Shown here: positions 49,931 through 50,420 of the stretch, one piece after another | Layout: every line of letters begins with the position of its first letter | Numbering within the stretch: position 1 is the stretch's first letter | Assembly (NCBI RefSeq): GCF_054482525.1 | Contig: NZ_CM137006.1 | Strand: one strand, 5' to 3' | DNA: 64,000 nucleotides | Made by a program: the position numbers and the translations under genes | The notes under the pieces: generated by a model | Databases searched by the model: none | What the model was told of the DNA's origin: nothing | The model's input: only the letters and a program-made list of their open reading frames with translations

Positions 49931-50420
49931 TCAAATAATTTCATTCCTTTTTAGTACTTCTTGTAACTTTGGTATCTGACATACAGCATCAGCAATCGCA
50001 CTGATATTCGCGGCATTATCCGAAACCATTCATGCCCCGGCCCCCATGTAGTTCAGGCGCGTCAGGAGCCCAACGCTCAGGGTAATCGGCGAAAGTGAAT
50101 GTTGGATAGACATTAGCAACCAGCCAGACCAATAGCCGTTGAAACTGCTGACGTTCGGCGCGCCCAACCGGTGGCGCAAGGTCCGGGCGACGATCGAGAA
50201 CCATCAATGCAATCGCCGCTGTCTCCGTCATAATCTCGTCATTTTCCAGCGCCAGTGTCGGAACCTGACACAACGGGTTCAGGGTTTTCAATAACTCGCG
50301 TGAAGCACCCTCGCGGTCAAAACCACTGACATCAACGAACTGATAAGGAATATCAGCCAGTGTTAGCATTAGCTCACTGATTGTAGAGCCCCATCCGGGT
50401 ACGCCATACACCTTAATCAT
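49931..50420 (-). pseudogene. yncG: glutathione S-transferase-like gene with frameshifts and internal deletion near the 3' end
   Basis: 134 aa ORF 50016..50420 has GST N-domain; downstream sequence continues GST-like in two other frames (TWGPGHEWF; DNAANISAIADAVCQIPKLQEVLKRNEII*). Confidence 0.5.

Follow-up and report, generated by a model that had tools for sequence, protein, structure and literature searches.

The yncG gene in the 64,000-nt stretch of DNA analysed here (the window) is, very probably, a genuine and vertically inherited pseudogene that is fixed in its lineage and that would have arisen by an illegitimate internal deletion together with the loss of one further base, without a mechanistic link to the adjacent island. 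In the course of events proposed here, an illegitimate deletion whose ends show no useful repeat would have removed 127 bp from inside yncG in the ancestor of a small E. coli lineage, and one A would have been lost 28 bp beyond it. Translation from the unchanged start codon would then give 123 native residues followed by 11 nonsense residues and a stop, and the absence of the stretch Q124-R166, which includes helix alpha5 and the start of alpha6 with the T-L-V-D N-capping box, would leave the product non-functional. Such a loss would be tolerated because yncG appears to be dispensable. The window thereby holds one more lineage-specific pseudogene of a dispensable and poorly characterised, beta-class-like GST homologue, which is already flagged in RefSeq.

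The yncG remnant and its two deletions

The yncG gene of K-12 (b1454; 618 nt), which encodes an uncharacterised GST-like protein of 205 aa, was used as the reference for indel calls, and other alleles were aligned as well. The window copy occupies the orthologous locus (ansP/yncH), between ansP and Rhs locus 6, and the order yncE-ansP-yncG-yncH is the same in the window and in K-12. The aligned DNA is ~96% identical to that of K-12, with the same start codon and with 60 bp upstream that are almost unaltered. In tblastn searches with K-12 YncG, the window matches residues 1-123 with an identity of 98.4% (E 8e-79), and the remnant of the C-terminus gives E 8e-14, both far above chance. No second copy was found when K-12 YncG was compared with the whole window, and a nucleotide search of E. 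coli genomes places yncG at a single position per genome. The initial annotation, made from the sequence of the window alone, had described a GST-like yncG that is present only as a pseudogene, and this description is borne out by the single locus.

The same annotation held that the frame stops after 134 codons and is followed by coding sequence in two other frames, and all three frames were reproduced. The 134-codon ORF (50016-50420, minus strand) ends in ...APELHGGRGMNGFG and a stop, as seen both in the ORF listing and in a three-frame translation. Translation of 49931-50420 gives TWGPGHEWF in the second frame and, in the third, DNAANISAIADAVCQIPKLQEVLKRNEII with a stop that closes the frame at 49931; a short ORF at 49931-50029 (minus strand) is additionally listed as MVSDNAANISAIADAVCQIPKLQEVLKRNEII with its stop. 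Pairwise alignment with the intact K-12 gene, which had been proposed as a check, confirmed an internal deletion and a further frameshift, and it narrowed the earlier estimate of at least two indels to exactly two inside the CDS. Relative to K-12 yncG, CDS nt 371-497 and one more base are missing from the window copy, and only 123 native residues are encoded. Three reading frames result because 127 = 1 mod 3 and 128 = 2 mod 3. The 127-bp and 1-bp deletions thus disrupt the reading frame, which meets a stop after codon 134 (Table 1).

The junction of the 127-bp deletion reads GAAC joined to TACATG. Its first retained base is T, where all of the other aligned alleles, intact or otherwise broken, have C (6/6), and the junction codon CTA opens the 11-residue aberrant tail of the 134-codon product. 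In the allele alignment, neither microhomology nor direct repeats were found at the ends of this deletion; a CTGAAC repeat lies within the deleted segment, away from the junction. The 1-bp deletion is located 28 bp beyond the junction, at a site that is not a homopolymer. Additionally, an extra 5-bp deletion is present in the spacer just 3' of the yncG stop codon (~49915). A scan for promoters and terminators around the remnant returned fewer matches than shuffled sequence.

Table 1. Coordinates of the yncG remnant, its lesions and the neighbouring genes in the window.
Feature	Position	Strand	Description and basis
yncG pseudogene, whole remnant	49931..50420	-	490 nt vs 618 nt in K-12; allele alignment and PGAP 'frameshifted'
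yncG native codons 1-123	50052..50420	-	Thioredoxin-like GST N-terminal domain and start of the C-terminal domain; tblastn, Pfam
127-bp deletion junction, yncG	50050..50051	-	CDS nt 371-497 gone, residues Q124-R166 lost; alignment
yncG out-of-frame codons (n=11, LHGGRGMNGFG), then TAA	50016..50051	-	Closes the 134-codon ORF
1-bp deletion site, yncG	50021..50022	-	A missing from TTTC[A]GG; shift into the third frame; alignment
yncG native C-terminus remnant (DNAANISAIADAVCQIPKLQEVLKRNEII and stop)	49931..50021	-	Original stop codon kept, now out of frame
ansP, conserved core neighbour	50687..52186	+	Divergent from yncG
yncH (DUF5445) pseudogene	49644..49850	-	Net +5 nt immediately behind the start codon, 1-bp deletion near 49727; K-12/RM13322 alignment
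Orphan vgrG, inactivated	46712..48820	-	Single in-frame amber codon Q592* (47045-47047), no frameshift
RHS element core protein gene, intact, Rhs locus 6	42491..46645	-	SCU-102/PCN033 annotation via coordinates; 61-70% GC

The carrier lineage and loss of yncG elsewhere

Both lesions were tracked with junction-spanning 40-mers through a collection of 5426 complete E. coli genomes. The 40-mer across the 127-bp junction occurs in 37 of the 5426, and the 40-mer across the 1-bp deletion occurs in the identical 37. No genome among the 5426 has just one of the two lesions; being perfectly linked, they may stem from one event or from two, in either order. Human, dog, chicken and marsupial hosts as well as lake water and seawater are represented among the carriers, which come from many countries and from different laboratories and years. 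In PCN033, SCU-102 and other carriers, PGAP labels the equivalent 490 nt 'frameshifted' and names it a pseudogene with a GST N-terminal domain. Since 37 independent complete genomes carry both junctions, the lesion is real and heritable rather than an assembly error, and it is already recorded in public annotation.

The carrier lineage includes SCU-102, ST70 and O166:H15 strains, and PCN033, a porcine ExPEC of serogroup O11 and phylogroup D (PMC4578781). The yncG remnant is identical in the window, PCN033 and SCU-102, and a 631-bp query around it is 100% identical in PCN033, SCU-102 and 19KM1776. SCU-102 is closest to the window, with 2 mismatches over 18.6 kb (within 40850-59480); PCN033 differs by 5 mismatches and 1 gap over 28 kb (at positions 58565, 47207, 47047, 43133, 41843 and 37886). 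These differences rule out that the window is PCN033 itself, as the 631-bp match had first suggested; no RefSeq record agrees with it exactly over longer stretches, and its source would be a third genome very close to these strains, or another version of an assembly. In a 24-kb comparison, the best matches are all carriers of the yncG deletion (98.1-100% identity) and non-carriers start at ~96%. This ranking, with the carriers first, is consistent with one origin in one clade, and from it we infer that the yncG lesions have a single origin. The 127-bp junction is of use as a clean marker for a clade of 37/5426 genomes, of which PCN033 is the one typed member.

All sampled carriers are identical in the sequence 3' of the 127-bp deletion. 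The type represented by PCN033 and SCU-102 differs from the other carriers at ~10 sites, all of which lie 5' of the deletion. Because the same variants also occur in intact alleles, they look like imported ancestral polymorphism, and recombination in the 5' flank of the carrier yncG is likely.

Inactivation of yncG has also occurred independently in other lineages. For instance, MS20658 has a pseudogene with an 18-bp deletion and a 1-bp insertion, E-1246 has one with an 11-bp deletion and a stop codon, and yncG of CFSAN067215 O18:H1 is likewise an independent pseudogene. Truncated YncG products of 138, 155, 115 aa and other lengths are found in E. coli and Shigella, the 138-aa form on 124 contigs, and a yncG match is lacking in 809/5426 genomes (~15%). 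The pseudogenes of MS20658, CFSAN067215 and E-1246 and the genes for the 138- and 155-aa products resemble the window copy in that the same gene is dead at the same locus, beside the variable Rhs locus 6. In contrast, their lesions are independent (indels and nonsense codons), and none of them has the 127-bp junction. These alleles indicate that yncG is dispensable and has been repeatedly inactivated in separate lineages.

Recurrent inactivation, in the carrier lineage as well as in MS20658, CFSAN067215 O18:H1, E-1246 and the truncated forms of E. coli and Shigella, is also what would be expected if selection had favoured the loss of yncG, for instance in lineages that are extraintestinal or host-associated, and fixation of the lesion across a diverse carrier clade could be read in the same way. 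Such an adaptive loss is nevertheless unlikely. Drift acting on a dispensable gene predicts recurrent loss equally well, most genomes keep yncG (the segment deleted here is present in 4457), and the neighbouring genes decay too. We therefore infer that the loss was neutral rather than adaptive.

Rhs locus 6 and the neighbouring genes

Rhs locus 6 lies between yncG and pptA, and yncG forms its upstream flank (PMC2935791). Comparison of alleles places the divergence of the flank types at the yncG stop codon (~49931-49945). A yncH-vgrG-rhs flank is found in the window and in RM13322, and in truncated form in K-12; a PAAR-tssI flank is found in JNE12-007, MS20658 and CFSAN067215, and an ISAs1-rhs flank in E-1246. 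Absent from the PAAR-type flanks, yncH is part of the variable flank and not of the conserved core. The lesion had been described as sitting at the edge of the island, and this holds in so far as no other conserved gene separates yncG from the variable Rhs locus; however, it is not exactly at the boundary, as native 3' sequence lies between the boundary and the two lesions, which are ~80 and ~110 bp within yncG. The description of the vgrG-rhs region as AT-rich does not hold, since GC content is 50-62% in vgrG and 61-70% in the rhs core. The AT-rich parts are instead yncH and the spacer (48800-50000, 31-39% GC) and the region of the rhs tip (41600-42600).

Two further genes of this flank are inactive. 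In the SCU-102 and PCN033 records, yncH carries the PGAP label 'frameshifted', and a 40-mer over its 1-bp deletion occurs in 38 genomes, namely the 37 carriers of the yncG junctions and a third ST2747 record. Translation and base-by-base comparison of the window vgrG revealed no indel relative to the intact vgrG of RM13322, and the vgrG of SCU-102 is annotated as having an 'internal stop'. A PGAP label of 'frameshifted' for the window vgrG was considered and rejected; that frameshift belongs to the PCN033 record. PCN033 itself has CAG at codon 592 and a 1-bp deletion at the equivalent of window position 47207. Two nearly identical strains would thus have different vgrG lesions, unless one of the differences is an assembly error. 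The 40-mer containing the vgrG amber codon (47027-47066) was found in 30 genomes, five of which have two copies. In SCU-102, the second copy belongs to the vgrG that adjoins hcp and rhs within the main T6SS cluster, and this vgrG is likewise annotated 'internal stop'. This pattern suggests gene conversion between vgrG paralogues; vgrG1 and vgrG2 of PCN033 are reported to be 99% identical (PMC4578781).

PCN033 has ~88 pseudogenes among ~4900 genes (PMC4578781). Given this number, three adjacent dead genes (yncG, yncH and vgrG) exceed independent chance, and some local cause may be involved. Their joint decay suggests locally relaxed selection rather than a single rearrangement. One joint reading, which we regard as quite improbable, is that yncG and yncH are functionally tied to the vgrG-rhs effector module, or that the surviving GST N-domain has a function of its own. 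The two genes precede vgrG-rhs in the same orientation and could, for example, be co-transcribed with it or serve it as accessory genes, in which case selection on all three genes would have ceased once the module was inactivated. In K-12, however, yncG and yncH are intact without any vgrG, which argues against a dependence of yncG on the module.

The initial annotation proposed that yncG suffered collateral damage from acquisition or rearrangement of the island, such that insertion, excision or rearrangement of the vgrG-rhs island caused the deletion. Several features of the locus would suit this proposal: Rhs locus 6 has yncG as its conserved border gene (PMC2935791), the flank types diverge at the yncG stop codon, the 3' half of yncG is highly polymorphic, and yncH and vgrG are dead in the carriers too. 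A true case is also known from strain E3, which has IS3 and ISAs1 copies from ansP to pptA in place of yncG and all of Rhs locus 6. As in the window, yncG function was lost in E3 on the margin of this variable locus. In E3, however, gene and island were lost together, which is genuine collateral damage, whereas the deletion in the window is internal and the structure of the island is intact. Both endpoints lie inside yncG, and ~120 bp of native 3' sequence survive together with the stop codon. No IS, repeat or foreign sequence was found at the 127-bp junction in the alignments. The stretch of the window that runs from yncG to the C-terminal tip of rhs is collinear with RM13322, with small indels only; in RM13322, an intact yncG adjoins the same yncH-vgrG-rhs island, whose yncH and vgrG are intact as well. 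The 127-bp segment, where it is kept (4457 genomes), is located within an annotated yncG adjoining yncH in the sampled records. Additionally, yncH and vgrG were hit by point events of their own, small indels in yncH and a single nonsense codon in vgrG. The island thus took no part in the deletion that can be seen in these comparisons, and collateral damage is very improbable as its cause. Together with E3, the window illustrates varied routes by which genes at the borders of the variable Rhs locus 6 decay or disappear.

Some further variation was observed at this locus. Identity to K-12 in the 127-bp segment reaches 99% or more in 1525 genomes but is only 90-95% in 2832; the 3' half of yncG thus appears unusually polymorphic, far beyond the divergence typical of the E. 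coli core, and this suggests hitch-hiking of yncG alleles with the variable Rhs locus. Compared with RM13322, identity is 97-99% across the rhs core, and past ~42980 the alignment breaks up, with numerous indels and with 60-75 mismatches in every 250 bp. This part (~42080-42980, minus strand), which comprises the C-terminal tip of rhs and the downstream ORF, is AT-rich (26-33% GC) and corresponds to the toxin tip, displaced as expected, and a putative immunity gene. In PCN033, in the region equivalent to ~39990-40640, the PGAP annotation has no pptA between ydcC (ISAs1) and yddH; pptA is present there in RM13322 and E3.

The truncated product

Residues 2-79 of the 134-aa ORF match Pfam GST_N_2 (35 bits, cut-off 25), and GST_N_3 and GST_N also score above their cut-offs. 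Only GST_N families match the remnant, and no GST_C match was found in it by Pfam. Of the features that define the GST superfamily, the N-terminal thioredoxin-like glutathione-binding domain is therefore present; the all-helical C-terminal domain with its alpha6 N-capping box is not, as T-L-V-D is deleted and the rest is out of frame. Even in intact K-12 YncG, the sole GST_C_2 signal is sub-threshold, and it covers residues 135-162, inside the deleted segment. The closest solved relatives of full-length YncG are Proteus mirabilis GST B1-1 (1pmt, E 1e-13) and E. coli Gst (1a0f, E 1e-11), and QLTLVDCYL of YncG aligns opposite FTVADAYL of the former. Full-length YncG has in common with the beta-class GSTs (1pmt/2pmt, 1a0f) the two-domain layout and the alpha6 S/T-x-x-D motif. 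It is nonetheless a distant relative of these enzymes, and the window copy lacks the core of the C-terminal domain.

In GSTs, helix alpha6 begins with an S/T-x-x-D N-capping box that is required for folding of the C-terminal domain. Judging from these alignments, Q124-R166 makes up most of that domain, and because the lost stretch holds the N-capping box, the yncG of the window is almost certainly non-functional. A truncated protein may still be made from the intact start codon and upstream region. The one functional hint for yncG is that its overexpression raised the H2O2 MIC five-fold in MG1655 (PMC8228696); according to a paper cited there, YncG had no GST activity in a cell-free system. 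Given this effect of overexpression, the loss of yncG may not be strictly neutral, and the carriers, as natural yncG nulls, could be used to study the reported peroxide-protective effect.

It could be argued that selection keeps the 134-aa product as a thioredoxin-fold protein that functions on its own. The start codon, the upstream region and a complete GST_N domain are preserved, and a frame-shifting further lesion is found in only two ST2747 records of the 37. This reading is highly improbable. GST N-domains normally need a C-domain and a dimer interface, and the 11-residue tail of the product is a by-product of the frameshift. In the two ST2747 carrier records, a further 14-bp frameshifting deletion lies inside the 134-codon ORF, and the carrier clade is in any case too young for persistence of the ORF to be informative.

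That yncG is intact in the organism and only appears broken through a sequencing or assembly artefact can safely be dismissed: the 1-bp vgrG indel between the window and the older PCN033 assembly is possibly an error in either, but both yncG junctions recur in 37 complete genomes of varied hosts, countries and years, the exact 134-aa product is found on 396 contigs in a public protein collection, and the 1-bp loss lies outside any homopolymer. Re-sequencing to guard against homopolymer errors, which had been suggested earlier, is unneeded when 37 assemblies share both junctions. Among these carriers of the inherited pseudogene, extra indels after inactivation are present in two strains (3/37 records), namely the 14-bp deletion of ST2747 and a 36-bp tandem duplication in the yncG of 23CRST032, and substitutions between carriers are few.
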